A stretch of 49,811 bases of DNA, taken from a virus (lineage: Duplodnaviria > Heunggongvirae > Uroviricota > Caudoviricetes). The position numbers were made by a program, and so were the translations under genes. The notes under the pieces were generated by a model. That model ran no database searches, was not told the DNA's origin, and worked only from the letters and a program-made list of their open reading frames with translations. This document shows, piece by piece, positions 3,003 to 46,287 of the stretch (the first letter of the stretch is position 1; each line of letters opens with the position of its first letter). The stretch lies in IMG/VR virus record IMGVR_UViG_2579779084_000010. One strand, given 5' to 3'.

Positions 3003-4232
3003 TTACGACTTCCGTTGCGCCGTTAACTCGGCAATACGGACGATCACCTGCACCGCTTTTTCCATACCTTCCAGAGTCACAAACTCATGCTTACCATGAT
3101 AGTTGTAACCGCCAGTGAACAGGTTCGGGCACGGTAATCCCATAAACGACAACTGCGCGCCGTCGGTACCACCGCGGATCGGTTTCAGTTCCGGTTCAAT
3201 ATCGCAGTCACGCATCGCCTGCTGGGCGATATCGAGAATATGCGGATGCTCAACCACTTTCTCGCGCATATTGTAGTAACTGTCTTCAATCGCCAATTCA
3301 ATGTAGCAATCAGGATGTAACCCTTTGCCCACTTTTTTGGCGATCTCCATCATTTTACGTTTACGCGCTTCAAACTGTTTACGGTCGAAATCACGGATGA
3401 TGTAGTGCATATCGGCCCGTTCAACGGTGCCTTTCATGCTCGCCAGGTGATAGAAACCTTCATAGCCTTCTGTCATTTCCGGGCTTTCATCCGCCGGAAC
3501 TTCCGCATGAATACGTGCCGCCAGCGACAGCGCATTTACCATCACTCCTTTCGCCGTGCCCGGATGAACATTGTTACCGACAATTTTGATATTGACCGAT
3601 GCGGCGTTGAAGTTTTCAAACTCCAGTTCGCCTACGCCACCACCATCAACAGTGTAAGCCCAGCGGGCATCGAAGGCATCAACATCAAAATGTTTCGCCC
3701 CTTTGCCCACTTCTTCATCCGGGGTAAAGGCGACGCGAATATCACCATGCGGAATGTTTTTCTGTTGCAATACCGCCAGCGCGGTCATGATTTCTGCAAT
3801 ACCTGCTTTGTCATCGGCACCTAACAAGGTTTTACCATCGGTGGTAATCAGCGTCTGACCCAGTAGCTGATGCAGCACCGGGAACATAACCGGTGATAAA
3901 ACTTCATCGCCGATACCCAGCGCAATATCGCCACCGCGATAGTTTTCAACAATTTGCGGATTCACATTTTTGCCGCTGCAATCCGGTGAGGTATCCACAT
4001 GAGAAATAAAGCCAATCGCCGGGATATCGCCAGGGACGTTAGCCGGTAACGTCGCCATCAAAGTGCCCTTCTCACTTAAGGTCACATTGATAAGCCCCAT
4101 CTCTTCGAGCTGCTCTTTCAGCAGATGCAATAACTTCCATTGGCCTTCCGTGCTGGGAACCTGTCTCACCCCTGCTTTTGATTGGGTATCCAGAGACACG
4201 TAGTTCAAAAATCGCTCAAGTAGTTTATCCAT
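3003..4232 (-). CDS. pepT: Peptidase T (tripeptide aminopeptidase, M20 family)
   Basis: Translation from internal Met [33 protein letters not shown]... is recognised as PepT; metal-binding HVDT and GADDKAG motifs present; convergent with roxA. Confidence 0.9.
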
Positions 4233-4481: not shown

Positions 4482-5618
4482 ATGGGACAGAGTAAAAAAT
4501 TGAATAAACAACCGAGTTCGCTTTCACCGCTGGTGCAATTGGCGGGAATTCGCAAATGCTTTGATGGTAAAGAGGTCATTCCCCAGCTGGATCTGACTAT
4601 CAACAATGGCGAGTTCCTCACGCTGCTTGGCCCTTCTGGCTGCGGTAAAACAACCGTTCTTCGCCTGATTGCAGGTCTGGAAACTGTTGATTCCGGACGC
4701 ATCATGTTGGATAACGAGGACATCACCCACGTTCCGGCGGAAAACCGCTATGTGAACACTGTTTTCCAAAGCTACGCACTTTTCCCCCACATGACCGTGT
4801 TCGAAAATGTGGCCTTTGGGTTGCGCATGCAAAAAACCCCCGCTGCTGAAATTACGCCCCGCGTGATGGAAGCCCTGCGGATGGTGCAGCTGGAAACCTT
4901 CGCTCAACGCAAACCGCATCAGCTCTCTGGTGGTCAACAGCAACGCGTCGCCATTGCTCGCGCGGTGGTTAACAAGCCTCGTCTGTTGTTGCTGGATGAG
5001 TCGCTCTCAGCGCTGGATTACAAACTGCGTAAGCAAATGCAGAACGAGCTGAAAGCGTTACAGCGTAAGCTTGGCATTACATTCGTCTTCGTGACTCACG
5101 ATCAGGAAGAAGCACTCACCATGTCAGACAGGATTGTGGTGATGCGCGATGGTCGCATTGAGCAAGACGGCACGCCGCGTGAAATCTACGAAGAGCCGAA
5201 AAACCTGTTTGTTGCCGGGTTCATTGGCGAAATCAATATGTTTAACGCCACTGTCATCGAACGTCTCGACGAGCAGCGCGTACGCGCCAACGTTGAAGGC
5301 CGCGAATGTAATATCTACGTTAACTTCGCCGTTGAACCGGGGCAAAAACTGCATGTTCTGCTGCGCCCGGAAGACTTACGTGTTGAAGAGATTAACGACG
5401 ACAACCACGCTGAAGGGCTGATTGGTTACGTTCGCGAGCGTAACTACAAAGGCATGACGCTGGAGTCGGTTGTTGAACTGGAAAATGGCAAGATGGTGAT
5501 GGTCAGCGAATTCTTTAATGAAGACGATCCTGACTTTGACCACTCTCTCGACCAAAAAATGGCCATTAATTGGGTAGAAAGCTGGGAGGTCGTACTGGCT
5601 GATGAAGAACACAAGTAA
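4482..5618 (+). CDS. potA: Spermidine/putrescine ABC transporter ATP-binding protein PotA
   Basis: 378 aa; Walker [13 protein letters not shown] signature LSGGQQQR, Walker B LLLLDE; C-terminal TOBE-like regulatory domain. Confidence 0.9.
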
Positions 5619-6465
5619 GTTCCAGAATGTAGTGATTGTCACTATTGTCGGTTGGCTTGTGTTGTTTGTCTTTCTGCCCAACCTGATGATCATTGGCACC
5701 AGCTTTTTGACCCGCGACGACGCCAGTTTCGTCAAAATGGTCTTTACGCTGGATAACTACACGCGTCTGCTCGATCCGCTCTATTTTGAAGTGCTATTGC
5801 ACTCGCTGAATATGGCGCTGATCGCCACTCTCGCCTGCCTGGTGCTGGGCTACCCGTTTGCCTGGTTTCTGGCGAAGCTGCCACACAAGGTGCGTCCGCT
5901 GCTGCTGTTTCTGCTGATTGTTCCCTTCTGGACCAACTCACTGATTCGCATCTACGGGCTGAAAATTTTCCTCAGCACCAAAGGCTATCTCAACGAGTTT
6001 TTGCTCTGGCTGGGCGTTATCGACACACCAATCCGTATCATGTTCACGCCCAGTGCGGTGATTATCGGTCTGGTTTACATTCTGCTACCGTTTATGGTGA
6101 TGCCGCTGTACTCCAGTATCGAAAAACTGGATAAGCCGTTGCTTGAGGCGGCGCGCGATCTCGGTGCCAGCAAGTTACAGACTTTTATCCGCATCATTAT
6201 TCCACTGACGATGCCGGGGATTATTGCCGGATGTCTGCTGGTGATGCTGCCAGCGATGGGCCTGTTCTATGTGTCCGACCTGATGGGCGGTGCGAAAAAC
6301 CTGCTGATCGGTAACGTCATCAAGGTACAGTTCCTCAATATTCGTGACTGGCCGTTTGGTGCAGCCACCAGCATTACGCTGACTATCGTAATGGGCCTGA
6401 TGTTGCTGGTTTACTGGCGCGCTTCTCGTCTGCTGAATAAGAAGGTGAGCGAATTAGATGATTAA
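5602..6465 (+). CDS. potB: Spermidine/putrescine ABC transporter permease PotB (C-terminus may be reshaped by the prophage junction)
   Basis: Polytopic membrane protein with ABC permease EAA-like motif (EAARDLGAS); start overlaps the potA stop. No potC follows; prophage DNA begins directly downstream. The true start may be a downstream Met. Confidence 0.85.
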
Positions 6466-6696
6466 TCCTTTATATTCAATGCATTAAGTTTGTTTTTGAG
6501 TGGTTTTGCCGTTTAAGGTAACGGCGTTATAGATCCTATCAAAATCAATCAATTCCGTTCTGGTTTTGGAGAAAGATTTTTCGAGAGCTTCGGTCTTTAA
6601 CTAAAACTGATTGCGTATAATCCCAATCCCCCTCCCCGACTATCTGAATGGTCGGGGAGGCACTTCAAGCACAAAATATCATCCCTGCGCCGTTGA

Positions 6697-6963
6697 TTAC
6701 TCTGCAGGTGAGGTCGGCCACTCAATATCAGGTGCAGTTGATGTATCAACACGATTCAACAATACCCGATATTTATTCCATGCCTCCAGCAACGAGCTTT
6801 CTTCCTCCGTTGCGATTTCCAGATCTACAGCATCCTGCAGTGGCGCAATATACTCACTGAATTCCTGGGTGTAGAACTGTGTGGTGACGGTCTTCCAGCC
6901 ATTCGGCTCCTGCTGTATCGAAGCATACCAGGCTATTTCAATATCGCTATGCTGCGGCAGCAT
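6697..6963 (-). pseudogene. Truncated tail fibre assembly (Tfa) C-terminal fragment
   Basis: 88 aa ORF whose sequence (…[44 protein letters not shown]) parallels the C-terminal half of the intact Tfa at 9474-10049; DNA is roughly 85-90% identical over about 150 bp by eye. Confidence 0.6.
6700..6870. repeat. Direct repeat copy A (tfa 3-prime region)
   Basis: Near-identical to 9485-9655 by eye, for example GGTGCAGTTGATGTATCAACACG versus GTGCAGTTGACGTATCAACACGG and TTTCTTCCTCCGTTGC in both. Confidence 0.6.
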
Positions 6964-7019
6964 TTAACCCCTTGTAATTCATCGCCATAATTGATTTAAT
7001 TCACAAATAAAACTATAAC

Positions 7020-7688
7020 ATGGTGAAATCAATGAAAAAAAACACAGATGATGGGGCTAAAATTTACACACCACTTACCCTAAAGCTTTATGACTGGTGG
7101 GTTTTGGGAGTATCAAATCGGCTTGCATGGGGATGTCCTACAAAGGAACACCTTCTTCCACACTTTCTGGAACATGTAGGTAACAACCATCTGGATATTG
7201 GTGTTGGAACTGGGTTTTACCTTACTCACGTACCTGAGAGTAGTCTGATATCTTTAATGGATTTGAACGAAGCTAGCCTGAACGCGGCATCTACAAGGGC
7301 TGGGGAATCAAAAATTAAACATAAAATTAGCCATGATGTTTTTGAACCTTATCCCGCGGCGTTACATGGTCAATTTGATTCCATTTCCATGTTTTACCTT
7401 CTTCACTGCCTGCCTGGAAATATATCTACAAAAAGCTGTGTAATACGCAATGCGGCGCAGGCCTTAACTGACGATGGAACTCTATACGGAGCCACAATTC
7501 TTGGCGATGGAGTTGTGCACAATAGCTTCGGTCAAAAACTGATGCGCATTTACAATCAGAAAGGCATCTTTTCAAACACAAAAGATTCCGAAGAAGGCTT
7601 AACACATATACTCTCAGAGCATTTCGAGAATGTTAAAACCAAGGTTCAAGGTACTGTAGTAATGTTTTCCGCTTCAAGAAAAAAATAG
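7020..7688 (+). CDS. Class I SAM-dependent methyltransferase (small-molecule/RNA type, not an obvious DNA MTase)
   Basis: 222 aa; glycine-rich SAM-binding motif I LDIGVGTGFY followed by an acidic residue motif (LMDLNE). No DPPY or PCQ DNA-methyltransferase motifs seen. Confidence 0.6.
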   Translation: MVKSMKKNTDDGAKIYTPLTLKLYDWWVLGVSNRLAWGCPTKEHLLPHFLEHVGNNHLDIGVGTGFYLTHVPESSLISLMDLNEASLNAASTRAGESKIKHKISHDVFEPYPAALHGQFDSISMFYLLHCLPGNISTKSCVIRNAAQALTDDGTLYGATILGDGVVHNSFGQKLMRIYNQKGIFSNTKDSEEGLTHILSEHFENVKTKVQGTVVMFSASRKK

Positions 7689-8053
7689 CATCCAACCGCA
7701 GCACGTTCTTGCTTAAGACGTGTCTGCGGTTTTTCAACTATTCAGATACATCACTCCCATCACATTCATTCCTCCGCATCATAGGCATATAGGCTATATC
7801 ACCTTGATATTTTTCTTCTTCAGATAAAAACTGTTATCTATGTATACTTTTAAACCCAATCCGTGTAGAGTCTCTGCATAAGATAGTTTGCAGTTGCCAC
7901 TTCAGCTTGCGCCATAAACCGCCTGATTTTTGCTGCCACCTGTTAGCATTCCTGTATACCTGAAACGACAATGTTTATCTACGAACTTTAAGAACCCCCA
8001 GGATAAAAATTGTCAACTATATCATATATAACACATTACTAATTCGAGGCTAT

Positions 8054-8167
8054 ATGAACAGCATACTGATAATCACTTCGCTCCTTATCATATTCAGCAT
8101 TTTTAGTCATGCGCTAATAAAATTAGGGATTGGCATATCCAATAACCCAGACAAAACCGATGTATAA
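8054..8167 (+). CDS. Small hydrophobic peptide (37 aa, single predicted TM helix)
   Basis: ATG preceded by GAGG about 6 nt upstream; [39 protein letters not shown]-rich island; shorter than the ORF-track cutoff. Confidence 0.25.
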
Positions 8168-8202
8168 GTCAACATATCCTGAATCAGACATACAATATCG
8201 CA

Positions 8203-8469
8203 ATGAAAATCAATAATATTTTAAGGAATATCTTCATGAAATCAAAAGACACCCTAAAGTGGTTCCCTGCGCAGCTTCCTGAAGTAAGAATTATCCTAGG
8301 GGATGCTGTAGTGGAAGTAGCAAAACAGGGAAGACCTATCAATACCAGAACATTGCTTGATTACATTGAAGGAAACATAAAGAAAAAATCATGGCTGGAT
8401 AACAAAGAATTATTACAAACAGCGATATCAGTTCTTAAAGACAACCAAAATTTAAATGGTAAAATGTAA
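8203..8469 (+). CDS. Hypothetical protein in AT-rich island (start may be the internal Met MKSKDTL)
   Basis: 88 aa ORF, lysine-rich, no recognisable motif; GC content of the surrounding 7.7-8.8 kb is clearly below the rest of the window. Confidence 0.3.
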   Translation: MKINNILRNIFMKSKDTLKWFPAQLPEVRIILGDAVVEVAKQGRPINTRTLLDYIEGNIKKKSWLDNKELLQTAISVLKDNQNLNGKM

Positions 8470-8785
8470 TATAATAAACTTACTTTTTTATCATTTTTCC
8501 ACTTTAACAACATTTTGCTCCACTTTTCCACGACCAAACAACTTGAAATCTGGTTAAAATAACACGCAACACTATTCTTCTTCCTTGAGTCCGCCCGGAA
8601 CTCGAAAAACAAACCGAGTTAAAGCCATTTTTCACAAAATCGATTTTGGGTCTCACCAAAATTACGGGGTTGCATACGCATTCGTTTATTTTCGAACGTG
8701 TACATACAAATATGCACAAAAATAATCATAATTATTTTCTGAGATGCATTATGATATGAACACCAATTTCGTATAGAGTCTCACT

Positions 8786-9376
8786 ATGTCTCAAATTTTT
8801 GCTTACTGTCGGATATCAACGCTGGATCAGACCACCGAAAATCAACGCCGGGAAATCGAAAGTGCAGGTTTTAAAATCAAACCTCAGCAAATAATCGAAG
8901 AACACATTAGCGGCTCAGCAGCAACCAGTGAGCGTCCTGGTTTTAACCGGTTGCTTGCTCGCCTGAAATGTGGTGATCAATTGATTGTGACAAAACTGGA
9001 TCGCCTTGGTTGTAATGCAATGGATATCAGGAAAACAGTGGAACAACTGACCGAAACAGGTATCAGAGTGCATTGCTTAGCATTGGGGGGCATTGACCTG
9101 ACCAGTCCAACAGGAAAAATGATGATGCAAGTAATTTCAGCAGTCGCTGAATTTGAACGAGACCTTTTACTTGAACGCACTCATTCCGGGATAGTAAGAG
9201 CCCGCGGCGCAGGGAAACGTTTTGGTCGACCACCTGTGTTAAATGAAGAACAGAAACAGGCGGTATTCGAACGAATTAAGTCAGGTGTAAGTATAAGTGC
9301 CATTGCCCGGGAATTCAAAACCTCGCGGCAAACCATTTTAAGAGCCAAAGCAAAACTTCAGACACCTGACATATAA
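8786..9376 (+). CDS. Serine recombinase of the resolvase/DNA-invertase family
   Basis: 196 aa; N-terminal catalytic serine context YCRISTLDQ, conserved RLGR-like motif ([10 protein letters not shown]), C-terminal HTH ([17 protein letters not shown]). Sits beside the tail fibre genes like Pin/Gin/Cin. Confidence 0.8.
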
Positions 9377-9473
9377 AAAATAATCTCGGTGTGAGATGCT
9401 TTACGTCTTCCAAGCCCCCTTCCTTGCCGTAAATGGAAAGATACATCTAATTATAGAATTTATATGTTTTACC

Positions 9474-10049
9474 CTACGGCAGTGCTGGCCATTCAATATC
9501 CTGTGCAGTTGACGTATCAACACGGTTCAGCAATACCCGATACTTTTTCCATGCTTCCAGCAACGAGATTTCTTCCTCCGTTGCAATTTCCAGATCTGCA
9601 GCATCCTGAAGCGGCGCAATATGCTCACTGGCTACCTGCATCAGGTTGTTTTTTGTTTCTTCCGCCTCCCGGATCCGGAACAGTTTTTCTGCTTCTGCAT
9701 CTTTCACCCAAGCTGTGCCGTTCCACTTCTGAAACTCCCCTTCCGGGGATAACCAGGTGACATGTTCCGGTAGCGGTCCGAGTTCAGAAATAAATAACGC
9801 GTCGCCGGAAGCCACGTCATAAACCGTTTTACCCCGATGATCTTCAACGAGATGCCACGATGCCTCATTACTGTTGAAAACGGCTACAAATCCTGCCGGA
9901 ATATCTGGCGGTGCAATATCGGTACTGTTTGCAGGCAGACCTGTATGAGGTGGAATATATGCGTCACCTTCACCAATAAATTCATTAGTTCCGGCCAGCA
10001 GATTATAAATTTTTATGGTCCGTGGTTGTTCACTCATTCTGAATGCCAT
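9474..10049 (-). CDS. tfa: Tail fibre assembly protein (Tfa)
   Basis: 191 aa directly downstream of the side tail fibre gene; the stf stop region overlaps the tfa start; sequence typical of lambdoid Tfa chaperones. Confidence 0.8.
9485..9655. repeat. Direct repeat copy B (tfa 3-prime region)
   Basis: Partner of 6700-6870; the two copies flank the methyltransferase / AT-rich island / invertase segment. Confidence 0.6.
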
Positions 10050-12994
10050 TATGCAAGCCTCACAATGTAGTTAAATGCGATGTTTTTGACGGTGTTTTCC
10101 GCGTTACCAGCAGCGTTAACGGTGATGGTGTGTCCATGTGAGCCAATCGCAACAGAGTGCGTATGAGCACCAATACCGACAGTATGCGCGTGTGCACCTG
10201 CAGATGCTGCTGTGCCAGACAGTGAGTGGCTATGATTACCATCTGTACTGGTATTAGCTAAACACCCCGTAGACATACCTACTGAGCCTTGTACACCCCA
10301 AGTATTTTGACCTGAGCTTGTATAACCATATTGATAAGTATCTTTAAAAACACTGGGGTTAAATCGACGGCCATCTCTATGGCTGTGATTACCAGCTGCA
10401 TTCGTGCTGCCACTTAAACTATGGGTATGCGCACCAGTGTTATTCGTAGATTTAGTGCCGTAATCAAACGACGATGTGGTTTTCGTCCCCAAATCCGTAC
10501 TGGATGCGCTGGCGCTGTGGGTGTGCGATTTAATGCCGTCCTGTTCCTGAGACAATACGGCACGACCACTGGCGGGCTTGCCCTTAATCGTCCAGCCACG
10601 CATATCAGGAATAACGCCTGACGGATAAGCCGCTGCAAGTTTCGGGTATGCAGATTTGTCAAAAGTCTGCCCCTGCATCAGGGCATAACCAGACGGAACG
10701 GTATCTGATGGCCACGGGATTGGTGCACCGACTGGATAAAACTCTGCAGGAGGATGAGCTGAGGTGTAAAGCTGCGCCCACGGCGACCAGTTTGCGTCGG
10801 TCGTATCCCGTCGTGAACGAATAAATGCCGGAGCATGAGCACCGCTTGTACCACTCCAGCCGATGAGTAACTCACCTTCGCCAACGGCTGTCATCCCTTT
10901 CAGGTGAATGATATTTCCATACGCTGTTGGATATCCGTTGTTATACACCTCGTATAACTCAAGACCTGTTGCCCCCTGCGTATTGTCTGTCAGCGCGGTG
11001 ACCCGACCTTTTGAAGCCAGATTAACTGATGATACTGCTGTTCCACCTGACGGTAACGCCCCGATCTCTGATGCCGTTGGCTTATTTCTGGAGTTATAGT
11101 CCCTTCGCCAGCCAGGTGAATAATCTGTTCCGTGATTAATATAGGTAAACTGGGCGTTAGTTGTTCCGCCACCAGTGGAGGTGGTCGGTGTGGTAATGCG
11201 GATCGTCATCGCTGACTTTATCCCCATTACTTCAATGACAGCTCCTGCGAGATGAATATTACCGCAGCCAGTATCAGTAATGATTTTATTATTGCCATAA
11301 GACCAGGAACCCTTGCACATCCAGTATGGATGGTTAAATGCTCCCTGAGAATCCAGCCACTCGATAAACTGTGCAGTCGTCCAGTTTCCTGTTGTTGTGC
11401 TTACTGACCCACCGAAGGCACGACAGGCACCAATATTTTTCGTAAAGGTGTCTTTGCCAGGGATATCAGCACCGTTCTGGTCTTTCTGCAGACGTTTCTC
11501 TGCATTGTCATAGGCTGCTTTTACTGCCTTTGGCGTTGCCGCCAGCGTTTCAGACGTGCTGTTGGTCGCACTGCTGAGCTGTACTATCCCCTTTTTCGTC
11601 GTGCTCGCATCCTCAAGCGCCACGGCGGATGCAATATCCTCTGCCCGTTTTGCTGCTGTCTCGGCGCGCGTTGCCGCGGATTCCGCCGTACTTTTGCTCT
11701 GAGCTGCCGCCGTCGCACTGCCAGCTGCCTCTGTCGCCTTCGTGGATGCCGTCGTGGCGCTGCCTTTCGCTGCTGACGCCTGTCTGGTCGCCTCATCTTT
11801 TGAAGCAGACGCCGATGATGCCGATGACGCCGCCGAACTGGCGGACGATGCGGCAGCCGTTTTTGAGGATTCTGCGCTGGTTTCCGACGCTTTCGCGTTC
11901 GTCTCGGATGTCTTCGCTGCGGAAGCAGACCTCGCTGCTGCGCTGGCCTGTACAGCGGCTTCGCCAGCATTCGTTGTGGCTGTTGAAGCAGACGATGCGG
12001 CACTTTCTGCCGATTTTCCGGCGGCGGTGGCACTGGCTGAGGCCTGCCCGGCACTTGTTGACGCGGCACTGGCAGATGATGCAGCCGCTGTTTTTGAGCC
12101 TGCCGCAGCTGAGGCGCTCTGTCCCGCTGCCGTTTCAGAAGACCTGGCGTTCGTCTCGGACGTTTTTGCCGCCTTCGCGGAATTTCCTGCCGCCGTTGCC
12201 GAGGAAGCGGCATTACTGGCGCTCGAGGCTGCGCTCGTTTCTGATGATTTCGCTGCCTCTTTTGAGGCCGCCGCATCCCGGGCTGAGGTGGCAGCTTCTG
12301 ACGCTTTCGTGGTCGCGGTGGATGCAGAAGTGGCTGCAGATTTTTGTGACGCTGCCGCATTCGTTTCTGACGTTTTCGCCGCACCGGCACTGGTAGCCGC
12401 CGCGCTTTTTGAGGACTCTGCAGCGGCAGCACTTTTTGATGCTTCAGTAGCCTTTGTTGATGCCGTTCCTGCGCTGGAAGACGCTGACTGAGCCGACGTC
12501 GCGGCCTGCCCGGCTGATGTGCTGGCTGCACGAGCTGAGCCTGCAGCATCAGTCGCATGGGTTGCCGCCTCACGGGCTGATGTGCCGGCATCGCTGGCTG
12601 ACTTCTTCGCGGCTGCCGTGTTCTGTGCCACTGCGGACGCGTTACGCGCCACCTCTTCCACCATCAGTTCAAAGCGGCGCAGTGCCTCCGGACGGGCATC
12701 ATCCTCCGTCATGGCACCGAGAAAATCATTCAGCGTACCCGGTTGTGAGTCTTCATACACGGTGATGGTCCCGGCATGCGATGGCGGGAAGCCTTCCACC
12801 AACAGAATAACGCTGTACTGACCGTACTCAACGTCCATGCTGTAACGCCCTGCTTCATCCGGATTTTCAGATGCCACCGTGTTCACCACCACCGTGGTAC
12901 TGTTACGTTTCGCTTTCAGCTGGATTGTGCAGTTCTGTACCGGTTTTCCTGTGCCGTCTTTCAGTACACCTGAAATCTTTACTGCCATATTCAC
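10049..12994 (-). CDS. stf: Side tail fibre protein (Stf) with long Ala/Ser/Thr-rich repeat region and His-rich C-terminal domain
   Basis: 981 aa; N-terminal region like lambdoid Stf; about 350 aa of low-complexity A/S/T repeats; C-terminal HxH motifs (GAHTHS, GNHSHS, GAHAHT, GSHGHT). Confidence 0.8.
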
Positions 12995-42175: not shown

Positions 42176-42820
42176 TTAACCACAGATGATATTGAAACGT
42201 TCTCCGGAAATCTTGACCATAATGTCAGACAGTTCGCTGACGGCATGGGCTTCAGATGATCCCAGAGCGTCAGGCTGAACAGCTATTACCGAAGCTCCAC
42301 TTGCCAGCCCTGCTTTTATACCCGCAGATGCATCCTCAAATACCACGCATTCACCAGGCTCAAGGCCCAAAGCCAAAGCTGCTTTGATGTAACCCTCGGG
42401 ACTTGGTTTTCCCGTCATTACATCTTCTGCACACACCATTACTCTGGGTAAGGGGAGATTAGCCGCTTTCATCCTGTTTTCGGCAAGCATTCTGCCTGCA
42501 GAAGTGACAAGTGCCCAGCTATCCGGTGGCAGTTTTGATAAGAGTGCAGCGGCCCCTTTTACTTCAGTAACGCCTTCTGTCGTGTTGATTTCAACCTCTT
42601 CGAGTGAGGCCGCGATTTTATTGGTTTTCTCACCTGCACCAATAAAATGCGTTAGTGTATCAATCGTTTGCCGCCCGTGTGCGTAAGCAATCACAGCCTG
42701 AGAATCAAGACCGTATTCTGCACAAAAATCTCTCCAGACGCTTTCCACTACGGCTGTTGAATCAACCAGCGTACCGTCCATATCGAATAAAAAACCCTTA
42801 GCGTTGAATATCATTGCCAT
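42176..42820 (-). CDS. HAD-superfamily hydrolase (subfamily IA phosphatase/phosphomutase-like)
   Basis: 214 aa; motif I FDMDGTLVDS (nucleophile Asp and Asp+2), motif II-like TSAG, motif III/IV K...EDASAG. Confidence 0.75.
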   Translation of the reverse strand: MAMIFNAKGFLFDMDGTLVDSTAVVESVWRDFCAEYGLDSQAVIAYAHGRQTIDTLTHFIGAGEKTNKIAASLEEVEINTTEGVTEVKGAAALLSKLPPDSWALVTSAGRMLAENRMKAANLPLPRVMVCAEDVMTGKPSPEGYIKAALALGLEPGECVVFEDASAGIKAGLASGASVIAVQPDALGSSEAHAVSELSDIMVKISGERFNIICG

Positions 42821-42843
42821 TCCTTAATGGTTGCAGAAGAAAG

Positions 42844-43482
42844 TTAATCAAACCATGTTTTTTCATCACCTTTCGCTACTCTCAGGCTGACAGCAATCTG
42901 CTCAGGCACAATTCTTGAAAGCGACAATTCAGGCAGGTCGTTGACATCAAAAAAATCAGCATCGAGTGACTCATGGCTGATTGACAGGCTGCCACCTACT
43001 TCTTCACAGAGAAAAATCAGCTTGTAAACATGCCAGGGTAAAGGCGGATGGCCGTGAAGATTACGATCCCAAACTCCCAATAGTTTAGTCACTCTGACTT
43101 TTAATCCGGTTTCTTCTTCGACCTCTCGACGCACAGCTTCAGAAGGTGTATCTCCAACATCTGCCCATCCGCCAGGAAGACTCCATAATCCATCTGCAGC
43201 CTCTTTCACCATCAGAATACGATTATTACGCAGGATAAACGCACGCACATCTGTTTTGGGCGTCGCGTAACCCGTTTCCGATACATGAAACAAATCATTG
43301 CGGCTAATATCAAACTGCGAACTCAGCAGTCCAGCGGCAATTTCACGCAAGGCTTCATAGCGTTCCTTGTCAAAGACGTCTTTTGAATAGGTCAGGCCTG
43401 ACTGCGCGAGGGCCTTTAGTCTCTGGGCAACAAAAATAAGCTTTTCTTGGGTCAACACTTCAGACATGTTTTTCATCTTCAT
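42844..43482 (-). CDS. NUDIX hydrolase with N-terminal accessory domain
   Basis: 212 aa; Nudix box GGWADVGDTPSEAVRREVEEETG matches GX5EX7REUXEEXGU; about 85-aa N-terminal domain before the catalytic fold. Confidence 0.75.
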   Translation of the reverse strand: MKMKNMSEVLTQEKLIFVAQRLKALAQSGLTYSKDVFDKERYEALREIAAGLLSSQFDISRNDLFHVSETGYATPKTDVRAFILRNNRILMVKEAADGLWSLPGGWADVGDTPSEAVRREVEEETGLKVRVTKLLGVWDRNLHGHPPLPWHVYKLIFLCEEVGGSLSISHESLDADFFDVNDLPELSLSRIVPEQIAVSLRVAKGDEKTWFD

Positions 43483-43678: not shown

Positions 43679-44080
43679 TTATCCCTGATAAAATGCCAGT
43701 ATGCGCTGCATAACTTCACTCATCCGGCACTCGCGACAGATTATGTTTAGGCGACTGTCGTAGCGACGTATTTCTCCATCAGGTAACGACCAGATAAGGT
43801 CCGGATCAACCACAGCTGTTTTCTTCACCTTTGCCCTCGATAGTTTTTTGCGGGCGTTTTGCCAGTCCTTACGCGCCTGTTCAGACGGGAATAACCCGTA
43901 GCCGGAGTTGTATACATCGCCACTGGCTACCAGCTCTCTGGCAAGAACGCTCATCAGATATCTAGTCGCACCTGTTTTAGCTTCCAGTTGCCGTAACGTC
44001 TCACGACCGCTCTGGCGCACGAGTTCCACCACCTGCCCTTTAATTTTTTCCCGCTCTTCTTGTGTAAAAACTTTTGCCAC
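43679..44080 (-). CDS. Hypothetical protein downstream of the replication initiator (possible replication accessory protein)
   Basis: 133 aa basic protein with a C-terminal CRECR pair; function assigned only by position. Confidence 0.35.
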   Translation of the reverse strand: MAKVFTQEEREKIKGQVVELVRQSGRETLRQLEAKTGATRYLMSVLARELVASGDVYNSGYGLFPSEQARKDWQNARKKLSRAKVKKTAVVDPDLIWSLPDGEIRRYDSRLNIICRECRMSEVMQRILAFYQG

Positions 44081-44120
44081 AAGTCCCCCTTAAAATTACC
44101 TCATGACCTGAAATCAAAAC

Positions 44121-45140
44121 TTATCCTCTGAAACCAGGCGGAATTTCTGTATCCGGTTCAGAAATATGATTCACACAACGCTGTACAGGTGAACGTCCCA
44201 GGCGGATGACCAGTTCGTCCCATTTTTCGCGGAGTTTTGACGGGCTCATGATGTTTTTTACCCAGAATGGATCCCGCTGTACCCGACCAAACATTTCGCA
44301 AATTTGTCTGTGGCTTCTGCCATCCAGCATCCGCATTGTGCGCACGTCATTGGCCCAGGCTGTCCAGTTAGGCTCTTTTGGTCGCATGATCTCTCCATCG
44401 TCGCTGGCAGCCTGTTCGTAAAGGTTCACGATCCGCCCCCAAATCCACTGCGCACACGCCAAATCCTCCCTGCTACCCCACTGGCATTTTTTCACACTAA
44501 ACACAACCGCGTCGGGGTTCCGGGTTAAAAAATCCTGTTCAGTCGTCTGCGGGTCCGGTTGCGAAGCTTCCGGACGAAAAGTGTTTTTATTCTCTGTAGT
44601 AATCTCTGTTGTATTCTCTGTAAGATCATCAGGCCATTTTGACCCGATGACATTGGGTCGTTTTGAACCAATGGAGCGTTTCATTTTGACCTCTTCCATC
44701 GTGTCATTTTGACCTGATGGAGCGGCGCATTTTGAACCGATGGATTCGTTCAATTTGCCACCATCTAAAAGCTCGCTCCCATAGTTGATCGTGTAGAAAT
44801 TGGTCATATCGCGCTTTGATTTATTGAGCTTTTCACAACGCAAAAGCCCCAGCGTTTTCAGACTTGCAAACGCGCGTTTTAACGTTGACTCTGACCAGAA
44901 TGGGAACTGTTCCAGCCATTGTTCCGTTGTGTTATAAATCCAGCGAACACCATCACATTCCATACCGGAGTTGGTATCTCTCAACCAGTAGTGCAGTTGT
45001 TGCAAAACAATGGCTTCGTTTAAGCCGATTTTCATTGCCAGCTGCGTGTTTATAACCAGTGGGCGTTCAGCAAAAAGAAGACTCATAATTCCATCCAGCT
45101 TTTTGTTGGTATTGCTGTCGATACGCAAGCTTGAAAGCAA
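44121..45140 (-). CDS. Replication initiator, lambda O-like (replisome organiser) with internal origin iterons
   Basis: 339 aa (true start possibly the internal Met MSLLFAERP near 45086); the coding sequence contains the iteron array at 44634-44765, as lambda ori lies within O. Confidence 0.65.
   Translation of the reverse strand: MLSSLRIDSNTNKKLDGIMSLLFAERPLVINTQLAMKIGLNEAIVLQQLHYWLRDTNSGMECDGVRWIYNTTEQWLEQFPFWSESTLKRAFASLKTLGLLRCEKLNKSKRDMTNFYTINYGSELLDGGKLNESIGSKCAAPSGQNDTMEEVKMKRSIGSKRPNVIGSKWPDDLTENTTEITTENKNTFRPEASQPDPQTTEQDFLTRNPDAVVFSVKKCQWGSREDLACAQWIWGRIVNLYEQAASDDGEIMRPKEPNWTAWANDVRTMRMLDGRSHRQICEMFGRVQRDPFWVKNIMSPSKLREKWDELVIRLGRSPVQRCVNHISEPDTEIPPGFRG
44634..44765. repeat. Origin-like iteron array: about six direct repeats of CATTTTGA(C/A)C(N)GATGG at roughly 23-bp spacing
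   Basis: CCATTTTGACCCGATG, CGTTTTGAACCAATGG, TCATTTTGACCTCTTCCATCG, TCATTTTGACCTGATGG, GCATTTTGAACCGATGG, TCAATTTGCCACCATC read directly from the plus strand. Confidence 0.7.
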
Positions 45141-45588
45141 TTGCTTTTTCTATAAGTTCGTCAGTTTCACGATCTACAACGGCAGGATCTGCAAAAAGCA
45201 GTCCAGATTCCACCACATCGCCATATTCTTTATTTAACCCGGCGATCATGTACGTAATACTTTTTCCATCACTGATCTCACGATACAACCTGAAATCACT
45301 AATCCGGATAGCCTCCATAATTGCAGGCACTAGCGCTGTGAACTTTTCACGCTTATCCCTGGTGTCGATAGCCTTCCAGCGTTCGAATATCTTCACTCGA
45401 TTAACGCTAAGCGCTCGCTGATCAACCGCGCCACCTTCATATGTGACACGCTGAACATCGATGTTCGGGCGCTCTTTCAAAGCCCAGAATGCTTCAGTGA
45501 TTAATATCGTCGCCTGCTCCTGTGTCATTCCTGGTCGACATATCCAGGCATCCAGAGCCTCACGAGCCTGTTCAGGAGTGATTTTCAT
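45067..45588 (-). CDS. YdaT-like early protein (CII-position gene of Rac/Qin-type immunity regions)
   Basis: 173 aa directly downstream of the Cro-analog; assignment by position and size. Confidence 0.45.
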   Translation of the reverse strand: MKITPEQAREALDAWICRPGMTQEQATILITEAFWALKERPNIDVQRVTYEGGAVDQRALSVNRVKIFERWKAIDTRDKREKFTALVPAIMEAIRISDFRLYREISDGKSITYMIAGLNKEYGDVVESGLLFADPAVVDRETDELIEKAIAFKLAYRQQYQQKAGWNYESSFC

Positions 45589-45802
45589 TGTTCAACCGCC
45601 CCGTCCGCTTCGTCTTACGATATTCGTCATAAACTTTGGGATCATACTGAAGCTCCCCGCCAGATGCCTCCTGTAGACGCATCGCGCGACCTTCAGGAAC
45701 CAGTATCCCCCAAGCAGCAACACTTGCCAGTCTCACTCCTGCGGCATTGGCAAGCTTTGTTTTGCTGCCAAAAAAAGTAATTGCGTCAACTTTAAGCATC
45801 AA
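45572..45802 (-). CDS. dicC: DicC-like (Cro-analog) small DNA-binding protein
   Basis: 76 aa, divergent from the DicA-like repressor across an operator-containing intergenic region; HTH-like FGSKTKLANAAGVRLASV. Confidence 0.6.
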   Translation of the reverse strand: MMLKVDAITFFGSKTKLANAAGVRLASVAAWGILVPEGRAMRLQEASGGELQYDPKVYDEYRKTKRTGRLNNENHS

Positions 45803-45810
45803 AGCCCCCT

Positions 45811-45830
45811 CTTGTTAGACCTTTCTAACA
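45811..45830. promoter_or_regulatory. Operator-like palindrome TGTTAGA-CCTT-TCTAACA in the dicC/dicA divergent promoter region
   Basis: Perfect 7-bp inverted repeat read from sequence; half-site recurs at 46324-46342 and 46361-46377. Confidence 0.6.
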
Positions 45831-45879
45831 TTATTGTGCGCGGGATACCTAAGTCAAGAAAAATTAGAATTACCTAACT

Positions 45880-46287
45880 ATGGATACAAGAACCCTAGGC
45901 CAGCGAGTTCTGGCGCGACGAAAAGAATTACGCTTAACACAACGAGAAGCTGCGCGCCTCGCTGGAGTTGCTCACGTCACAATTTCACAATGGGAAAGAG
46001 ACGAAACCCAGCCAGTCGGAAAACGATTGTTTGCTTTAGCGGATGCTCTGAAGTGCTCACCTACATGGCTAATGTTTGGTGATGAAGACAAGGCACCAGT
46101 GCCTGCACAAGAACTTCATGTGGAAACAGAGCTAACTCCCAACCACAAAGAATTGATCGAATTATTCGATGCTCTTCCATCTTCCGAGCAGGAAGCCTTG
46201 CTGTCTGAAATGCGCGCAAGAGTAGAAAACTTCAACAAACTCTTCGAAGAAATGCTTAAAGCGCGTAAAAATAAATCAATAAAATAA
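45880..46287 (+). CDS. dicA: DicA-like XRE-family HTH repressor (CI-analog without peptidase domain)
   Basis: 135 aa; N-terminal HTH (LTQREAARLAGVAHVTISQWE); C-terminal region resembles DicA as I recall it (NFNKLFEEMLKARK). Confidence 0.75.
   Translation: MDTRTLGQRVLARRKELRLTQREAARLAGVAHVTISQWERDETQPVGKRLFALADALKCSPTWLMFGDEDKAPVPAQELHVETELTPNHKELIELFDALPSSEQEALLSEMRARVENFNKLFEEMLKARKNKSIK

Follow-up and report, generated by a model that had tools for sequence, protein, structure and literature searches.

How did a methyltransferase gene, an AT-rich kilobase, and a serine recombinase gene come to lie between two direct copies of the 3′ end of a tail fiber assembly gene (tfa)? The question is raised by positions 6964 to 9473 of IMG/VR record IMGVR_UViG_2579779084_000010, a 49,811-nucleotide (nt) stretch of tailed-phage DNA referred to here as the window. 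The initial annotation had placed an S-adenosylmethionine (SAM)-dependent methyltransferase, an AT-rich kilobase with open reading frames (ORFs) of 37 and 88 amino acids (aa), and a serine recombinase between the repeats, and had read them as a single module captured by recombination. All of these ORFs lie where it had put them, but the single capture gave way to two independent cassettes, each of which occurs alone in phages and in Escherichia coli K-12. With a probability of about 0.8, we regard this accessory end of a potB-integrated lambdoid prophage as a mosaic of two pre-existing cassettes that circulate independently of each other among the lambdoid phages of E. coli.

Two cassettes and their joint

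All genes of the stretch have counterparts in K-12. Cassette 1 (~6717 to 7729) is of the DLP12 type and comprises tfaX and ybcY. It shares 96.8% DNA identity with K-12 over 1,013 bp, and the homology covers tfaX, the spacer, ybcY, and the terminator, with gene order and orientation kept. The same tfaX-ybcY block was found in S10, PhiR68_2, 2G7b, ev243, and TD225-C4. Cassette 2 (7678 to 9473) is of the Qin/Rac type, ynfT (ynaM)-ydfK-pinQ, and shows ynaM/ynfT, ydfK/ynaE, pin, and a convergent tfa in the order of these K-12 prophages. Together with tfaQ, the homology runs from 7678 to 10245, with 97.9% identity to K-12 Qin, and from 7692 onward (~2.55 kb) with 98.3% identity to Rac.

The boundaries of the two cassettes overlap. 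Homology to sequences carrying only the methyltransferase ends at 7729 and homology to those carrying only pin begins at 7678, leaving 52 bp (7678 to 7729) in common. Inside this overlap lies a predicted hairpin (7694 to 7731, both strands) with a folding free energy of −22.9 kcal/mol on the plus strand and −27.6 kcal/mol on the minus strand (z scores of −5.5 and −4.6). T runs are present on both sides of it, including five T residues after the hairpin. Since it folds strongly both ways and is flanked by T runs, the hairpin is therefore predicted to be a bidirectional intrinsic terminator that doubles as the mosaic joint.

The neighbors of this hairpin vary. Among 80 IMG/VR loci whose methyltransferase shares at least 99% identity with that of the window, the sequence to the right of the hairpin was a tfa 3′ end in 70 cases, the CssrB/ipaH region in eight, cassette 2 in one, and another sequence in one. 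In the 70 loci the tfa 3′ end directly follows the methyltransferase terminator, without pin, ydfK, or ynaM. The hairpin also corresponds almost exactly to the 3′ end of CssrB, a Shigella small RNA (sRNA), as modeled in Rfam. A real CssrB-like body follows the hairpin in the eight loci (e.g., E. coli O121 strain 201805972), where it stands beside ipaH, a type III secretion system effector gene; thus, one terminator would be common to convergent units in several cargo contexts. The Rfam match to CssrB in the window itself (7697 to 7834, minus strand) was rejected as an sRNA gene, as it is due solely to the shared terminator hairpin.

Comparison with related prophages that lack the insert, which the initial annotation had suggested, resolved both single-cassette and joined architectures. 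Cassette 2 occurs without the methyltransferase in phages mEp460_ev081, Tritos, HannyBb, 2H10, and PhiR34_1 and in K-12 Rac and Qin, and cassette 1 without pin in 2G7b, ev243, phage 204576, and PhiR26_1, in K-12 DLP12, and in the potB prophage of strain TD225-C4. The joined architecture was found in phages PhiR68_2, Kati, and Turner as well as in the DLP12-site prophage of E. coli S10. In 5,426 complete E. coli genomes, cassette 1 was present in 3,797, cassette 2 in 2,731, and the joint in 317. None of the 5,426 carries the joined form at the potB site, though each half is common.

We propose the following origin for the region. Cassette 1 would be a stand-alone moron, composed of the methyltransferase gene, a putative sigma-70 promoter of its own (bound by H-NS in K-12), and a terminator predicted to act in both directions; it is bordered on the outside by the chimeric ORF, a fusion of the 5′ end of a phrog_3893-family gene with a tfa 3′ end. 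Cassette 2, which in phages and in K-12 usually sits directly between tfa and the attachment (att) site, would have been joined to it by a crossover at the shared 52 bp, probably at the terminator hairpin. The direct tfa repeat would then be a by-product of an old illegitimate fusion and of repeated exchange in the conserved tfa 3′ end, and is probably not a duplicated target or a pair of sites with a function.

The order of events could also have been the reverse, with the joined form ancestral and the single-cassette forms derived from it by deletions whose end points the hairpin marks. All three architectures have the 52-bp overlap, and deletions do occur here. In phage Ayreon (MF807953.1, positions 3246 to 3587), a clean natural deletion equivalent to 6994 to 7652 of the window has removed the body of the methyltransferase gene and left in place the tfa 3′ end, the hairpin, ~36 nt at the end of ybcY, the promoter spacer, and the 5′ part of tfaX. 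The joined form, however, is the rarest of the three, being found in 317 genomes versus 3,797 and 2,731, and in one of the 80 IMG/VR loci. Moreover, unrelated neighbors of the hairpin such as CssrB/ipaH are more readily explained by reuse of a mosaic joint than by the same deletion occurring repeatedly, and we consider an ancestral joined form unlikely.

The joined arrangement is already known, in that it has been deposited and annotated in phage and genome records. As it stands, the mosaic matters little: it is a routine one, and its genes already carry K-12 names.

The tfa repeat and the chimeric tfaX

The right-hand tfa (9474 to 10049, minus strand) is intact, as the initial annotation had it. 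It encodes a TfaQ/TfaR-type protein of 191 aa with a full Caudo_TAP domain (Pfam E value, 9e-43) and 97 to 98% identity to K-12 TfaQ/TfaR. The direct repeat consists of 6716 to 6867 on the left and 9487 to 9638 on the right, both on the minus strand, with 134 of 152 nt (88%) identical and a longest exact run of 16 bp; its blastn core (6716 to 6859 versus 9487 to 9630) is 144 bp long and 89.6% identical (E value, 7e-49). A repeat of about 150 bp had been described as nearly identical. Its direct orientation and its length (144 to 152 bp) are borne out, while its identity is 88 to 90%, with no exact run above 16 bp. Judged by sequence comparison, the repeat is homology rather than chance, and its two copies are different alleles and not a duplication made in place. 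The minimal homology for efficient RecA-mediated recombination is ~23 to 27 bp. A RecA loop-out between the repeats was dismissed as unlikely, given a longest exact match of 16 bp.

These properties bear on the single-capture proposal, according to which the methyltransferase, the AT-rich island, and the invertase arrived at once through homologous, Campbell-type recombination at the tfa 3′ end. Direct tfa 3′-end repeats do flank the region, and a circle bearing a tfa 3′ fragment would, by a single crossover, leave one intact and one truncated copy. Yet pin-ydfK-ynaM is found without the methyltransferase and tfaX in K-12 Rac, Qin, and several phages, and the converse also holds. The tfa 3′ end directly follows the methyltransferase terminator in 70 of the 80 loci. 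In addition, an illegitimate event is needed to join the truncated copy to the start of an unrelated gene, as it is here, and the repeat copies differ as alleles do (88 to 90% identity, exact runs of 16 bp at most). Capture of the whole as one module thus appears quite improbable; for the methyltransferase cassette alone, a Campbell-type origin is still conceivable. That recombination shaped the region was correctly recognized from the start, its breakpoints lying around conserved tfa 3′ ends.

The left copy had been called a truncated tfa (6697 to 6963). This describes its C-terminal part, which covers the last 55 Caudo_TAP positions; the first ~33 codons come from another gene family. We therefore describe the ORF (6697 to 6963, minus strand, 88 aa) as a tfaX-type chimera, to which the phrog_3893 family contributes residues 1 to ~33 and a tfa 3′ end residues ~34 to 88. 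The match to Caudo_TAP (E value, 1.6e-24) involves the C-terminal 55 residues and only profile positions 77 to 131 of 131, so that the N-terminal two thirds of Tfa is missing and a full-length Tfa domain is not present. Among PHROG families, phrog_2341 matches the ORF over its full length (E value, 3e-59) and phrog_3893 matches residues 3 to 37, and Tfa PHROGs and Caudo_TAP match residues 31 to 87. By BLASTP, the N terminus is 50% identical over 36 aa to a 79-aa ORF of Klebsiella phage Kp4882-3 (E value, 2e-11). Full-length members of this 79-aa family occur with a Peptidase_S24 (UmuD-like) gene beside the integrase, divergent from cargo such as gtrABC, so the divergent-promoter spacer between ybcY and tfaX looks like an original boundary between cargo and operon. 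The fusion to the tfa 3′ end, at ~6860 to 6870, looks like an illegitimate joint. Ayreon supports the chimera, as it shares the block only down to 6877, without the tfa-like part.

Inside the left repeat three mosaic breakpoints were found, at ~6790, 6740, and 6717. Copies of the DLP12 type drop to 74% identity to the left of ~6790, those of the Nesevirus type diverge to the left of ~6740, and only the potB type passes 6717. Because the breakpoints in tfaX differ among lineages, the conserved tfa 3′ end would therefore be a site of repeated recombination. Rfam also reports IS009, a predicted E. coli sRNA, at both places: with 221 bits, above the gathering score, at the tfa 3′ end (9508 to 9706, minus strand) and with 110 bits on tfaX (6737 to 6940, minus strand). 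We did not retain these matches as RNA genes; they mark tfa 3′ ends and coincide with conserved tfa coding sequence.

We read tfaX as a dispensable recombination scar, and annotations should treat it as a chimera of this kind instead of a shortened tfa. The ORF is broken by a TGA at codon 62 in K-12, S10, and PhiR68_2, by a 7-bp deletion in 2G7b, and by a replaced 3′ end in ev243. A short but functional tail fiber chaperone, or some other small protein, is nevertheless conceivable, since the ORF has a ribosome-binding-site-like AAGGGG and an ATG, a PHROG family of its own, and a tfaX promoter listed in the K-12 genomic SELEX (systematic evolution of ligands by exponential enrichment) data (PMC3946193), and is open in 55 of the 80 IMG/VR loci. 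We judge this very unlikely. The disruptions are independent and are also seen in sequenced phages with named hosts, the N-terminal two thirds of Tfa is gone, and exchange with functional tfa alleles can account for the open variants.

Several points nevertheless weigh against a mosaic of two cassettes with a scar at its edge. The open tfaX copies are 88 to 89 aa long and come in three in-frame C-terminal variants. Expression of the genes from the lysogen is presumed by analogy with K-12. The single-cassette forms could have arisen from an ancestral joined form through deletion (see above). Finally, the combination of the potB att site with the joined form was seen in none of the 5,426 complete genomes.

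Functions of the cassette genes

In cassette 1, ybcY (7032 to 7688, plus strand) is intact and encodes a class I SAM-dependent methyltransferase. The ORF opens at 7020, and the start is most likely the fifth codon, a Met at 7032, because the homologues are 218 aa long, as is the product from this codon, and because the promoter string ends at 7019. The divergent spacer (6964 to 7031) contains this putative plus-strand promoter, TTGATT-17-TATAAC, at 6991 to 7019. It is an exact copy of the string listed for the K-12 ybcY promoter by RpoD genomic SELEX, where the promoter is marked as H-NS-bound (PMC3946193).

YbcY matches the Pfam families Methyltransf_12, -23, -25, and -11 above their cut-offs and phrog_2132 with an E value of 4e-156. 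The AlphaFold2 model (predicted local distance difference test score, 88) has a generic small-molecule methyltransferase fold. The features of class I SAM methyltransferases are present, namely, a Rossmann-like fold, motif I (DxGxGxG), the acidic residue of motif II, and motif IV; motif I (DIGVGTG) and the other motifs are invariant across 29 homologues. By sequence, the nearest proteins of solved structure are juvenile hormone acid methyltransferase and UbiG, with E values of about 1e-3, and the top Foldseek match as well as a weak NCBIfam match are bacterial phospholipid N-methyltransferases. No DNA methyltransferase family was found for YbcY in Pfam or NCBIfam. The profiles and the fold agree with the initial annotation that the motifs are of the small-molecule rather than the DNA methyltransferase type. 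Screening of six ORFs with the PADLOC models gave no meaningful match; the sole hint of a defense role for YbcY was a marginal one (mad2; E value, 0.009; 12.8 bits), and no nuclease ORF adjoins the gene.

YbcY homologues with 55 to 70% identity occur as stand-alone genes on the chromosomes of Salmonella, Enterobacter, Erwinia, Yersinia, Pantoea, Cedecea, and Testudinibacter, and no conserved partner gene was found over eight chromosomal contexts. A pairing of a methyl ester-forming enzyme with an esterase was considered from hydrolases nearby in Enterobacter, Erwinia, and Nesevirus phages and was dropped, as the association did not hold. The gene is present at the tail fiber end of prophages in ~70% of complete E. 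coli genomes, with up to four copies per genome, and its neighboring cargo varies (ompT/appY, ipaH, an alpha/beta hydrolase, or ynaM-ydfK-pin). The possibility, raised at the outset, that it is a common housekeeping paralogue applies in part, given this extreme frequency and the stand-alone homologues in Enterobacterales.

Our best statement is that YbcY is probably a cytoplasmic enzyme, expressed by the lysogen as a moron, that methylates a small molecule or a lipid. Its GC content is 0.41, versus 0.48 to 0.55 in tfa and stf, its presence or absence varies among related phages, and the predicted hairpin at 7694 to 7731 would serve as its own terminator. A further step, that YbcY is a lysogenic-conversion enzyme which acts on a small molecule of the host or on a membrane lipid and, by methylating it, changes phage susceptibility, the envelope, or stress tolerance, is a doubtful one. 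If it were true, the flanking tfa 3′ end and terminator would be homology handles that move the gene among unrelated tail modules. In the literature, ybcY was found only in lists, and no paper was found that links methyltransferase, moron, tail fiber assembly, and lambdoid. YbcY is among the most widespread uncharacterized prophage enzymes of E. coli, and knowledge of its substrate would bring a small but genuine gain for the understanding of lysogenic conversion.

The AT-rich stretch (7689 to 8785) has a GC content of 0.356, versus 0.50 for the whole window. It begins, after the hairpin, with the leader of the ynaM-ydfK unit (7732 to 8053, plus strand), which contains a promoter-like site at 7819 to 7848; in K-12, RpoD and H-NS bind upstream of ydfK/ynaE (PMC3946193). 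The 37-aa ORF is ynaM/ynfT (8054 to 8167, plus strand), which encodes a small membrane-type protein (Pfam YnaM, E value of 6.5e-28; NCBIfam YnaM_YnfT_fam) identical in all 37 residues to K-12 YnaM and YnfT. Translation of K-12 YnaM has been shown by epitope tagging, the tagged protein being readily detected in growing cells (PMC6001520).

The 88-aa ORF (8203 to 8469) is present as first described, but the true protein is the 77-aa cold-shock protein YdfK, encoded from 8236 to 8469 on the plus strand (phrog_2718), and annotation of the ORF opening at 8203 should be changed to it. YdfK is identical in all 77 residues to K-12 YdfK and in 76 of 77 to YnaE, and its computed monoisotopic mass (8772.80) agrees with the published intact mass of 8772.78 (PMC5594050). 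By top-down mass spectrometry, YdfK and YnaE were found to be cold-shock proteins that appear after refrigeration, and no toxicity was reported (PMC5594050). A K/T substitution is the sole difference between the two paralogues. The "K>T mutation" in ydfK that has been reported in phage-resistant MG1655 derivatives (PMC12844343) is this same substitution and may therefore represent read mis-mapping or gene conversion and not a new mutation.

The initial annotation had considered that the 37-aa peptide and the small protein might form a toxin/immunity or abortive-infection cassette, and a hydrophobic peptide next to a soluble protein, both small and both encoded in an AT-rich prophage end bound by H-NS, does invite this idea; neither protein has a defined molecular function. 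No homology of ynaM-ydfK to toxins, antitoxins, or abortive-infection systems was found in PADLOC or among the Pfam and NCBIfam toxin families, however. The two proteins are 100% identical to K-12 YnaM/YnfT and YdfK, and they are constitutive residents of K-12 with two copies each. Tagged YnaM is detected in growing cells (PMC6001520), and YdfK and YnaE build up after storage in the cold and remain present, with no toxicity reported (PMC5594050). Such a cassette is highly improbable.

The last gene of cassette 2, pin (8786 to 9376, plus strand), encodes a PinQ/PinR-type small serine recombinase (Resolvase and HTH_7 domains; phrog_125, DNA invertase) that is identical to K-12 PinQ in 196 of 196 residues. 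It is preceded by an AT-rich spacer (8470 to 8785) with a putative plus-strand promoter, TGTACA-16-AATAAT, at 8699 to 8726, an exact match to the string listed for K-12 pinQ and pinR by RpoD genomic SELEX, in which the spacers are marked as H-NS-bound (PMC3946193). Pin is not a close relative of the Hin/Gin/Cin/Pin group: it is 38% identical to e14 PinE, scores 85 bits against the NCBIfam invertase model (cut-off, 272), and among solved structures matches Gin best, only ~20 bits above gamma-delta resolvase.

A resolvase/invertase-family recombinase that adjoins tfa and has Gin as its nearest solved structure could be expected to act here, either by inverting a tail fiber segment (a host-range switch, as with Gin, Cin, and e14 Pin) or by excising cargo between the tfa repeats. 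Crossover sites were sought with the AAACCNNGGTTT core, with a 26-bp degenerate hix/gix consensus (three mismatches allowed), and with a pix site derived from K-12 e14, and nothing beyond chance was found with any of the three. A single AAACCAAGGTTC at 7636 to 7647, in the 3′ end of the methyltransferase gene, resembles the hix/gix/pix core with one mismatch. It is also present in phages without pin, and half-site-like matches (four found versus 2.1 expected in the window) are at the level of chance. General inverted-repeat searches revealed no convincing repeat linking stf, tfa, and the pin flank. There is one stf-tfa set, without a second stf 3′ end, and the only other tfa-like sequence is direct, on the same strand as tfa, not inverted; furthermore, pin mostly occurs without tfaX. 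Together with the low identity to e14 PinE, these observations make action of Pin here extremely unlikely. An inversion or excision switch is not supported, and we infer that Pin has no target in this prophage.

Prophage setting and comparison with known systems

The left flank is host DNA with potA (4482 to 5618) and potB (5602 to 6465). Homology to K-12 potA-potB (98.9%) stops at 6447, with the end of K-12 potB 12 nt further on. Because K-12 potAB homology ends here, the 3′ end of potB is the site of integration, and the host/prophage junction is at 6447/6448; an identical junction occurs in 916 of the 5,426 complete E. coli genomes. The att-proximal end (6448 to 6696), specific to potB-integrating prophages, is predicted to fold into a GC-rich hairpin at ~6637 to 6669. 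This segment is common only to the potB prophage of strain TD225-C4 (99.5%) and absent from DLP12- and Nesevirus-type copies. The TD225-C4 prophage matches 6300 to 7729 at 99.5% yet has a tail module of the baseplate type (e14/Mu-like). On the other side, the prophage genes of the minus strand read leftward through J, lom, stf, and tfa, and stf (10049 to 12994, minus strand), a homologue of stfR as annotated in S10 and K-12 Rac, is the side tail fiber gene and the last structural gene before the cargo end. The region from 6448 to 9473 is thus the accessory, non-essential cargo end of a lambdoid prophage, distal to the tail fiber, in agreement with the initial view of it as cargo at the tail fiber end.

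Farther away, in the early/replication region, genes for a HAD-type hydrolase (42176 to 42820) and a NUDIX hydrolase with a Nudix_N domain (42844 to 43482) adjoin each other on the minus strand; this pair (42176 to 43482) may be a second cargo spot. A Rac-like control region follows (43679 to 46287), with a DUF977 protein, a YdaT_toxin-family protein (45067 to 45588, minus strand), and a divergent HTH_3 repressor-like gene (45880 to 46287, plus strand). The prophage extends past the window end, and no integrase was seen in the window.

The region recalls several known systems. The Mu G/Gin, P1 C/Cin, and e14 P/Pin switches likewise have a small serine recombinase beside tail fiber and tfa genes and more than one tfa-related sequence; here, in contrast, the second tfa piece is direct, and neither an alternative stf 3′ end nor crossover sites were found. 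A moron, as reportedly described by Hendrix and colleagues, is an independent promoter-gene-terminator unit in a late-region or cargo position. Similarly to lambdoid morons, ybcY has a putative promoter and terminator, a lower GC content, presence/absence polymorphism, and an orientation opposite to the tail operon, and the composition of the region is of the moron type (GC content of 0.41 and 0.36, versus 0.50 for the window); unlike them, it has no known lysogen phenotype.

Among K-12 prophages, DLP12 has in tfaD-ybcY-tfaX (b0561 to b0563) the same set of a tfa, a convergent methyltransferase, and a direct tfaX remnant, with the same promoter string and terminator. In K-12, however, ybcY is a pseudogene and a stop at codon 62 interrupts tfaX, whereas both are open here; the K-12 terminator abuts tfaD, whereas 1.7 kb with ynaM-ydfK-pin intervenes here; and the outer flank is appY-ompT in K-12 and the potB att site here. 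Qin (ynfT-ydfK-pinQ-tfaQ-stfQ) and Rac (ynaM-ynaE-pinR-tfaR-stfR) share the convergent pin and tfa, and YnfT, YdfK, and PinQ are identical. In these prophages the hairpin lies ~190 to 240 bp from the prophage end, whereas here tfaX-ybcY is attached at the hairpin. The closest arrangement, tfaX-methyltransferase-ynaM-ydfK-pin-tfa-stf at 98.4 to 99.3% identity, is that of PhiR68_2 (PV340576), Kati (PP925833), Turner (PP925837), and the S10 prophage, which differ in having a tfaX with a TGA stop and in being integrated on the appY-ompT side, and not at potB.

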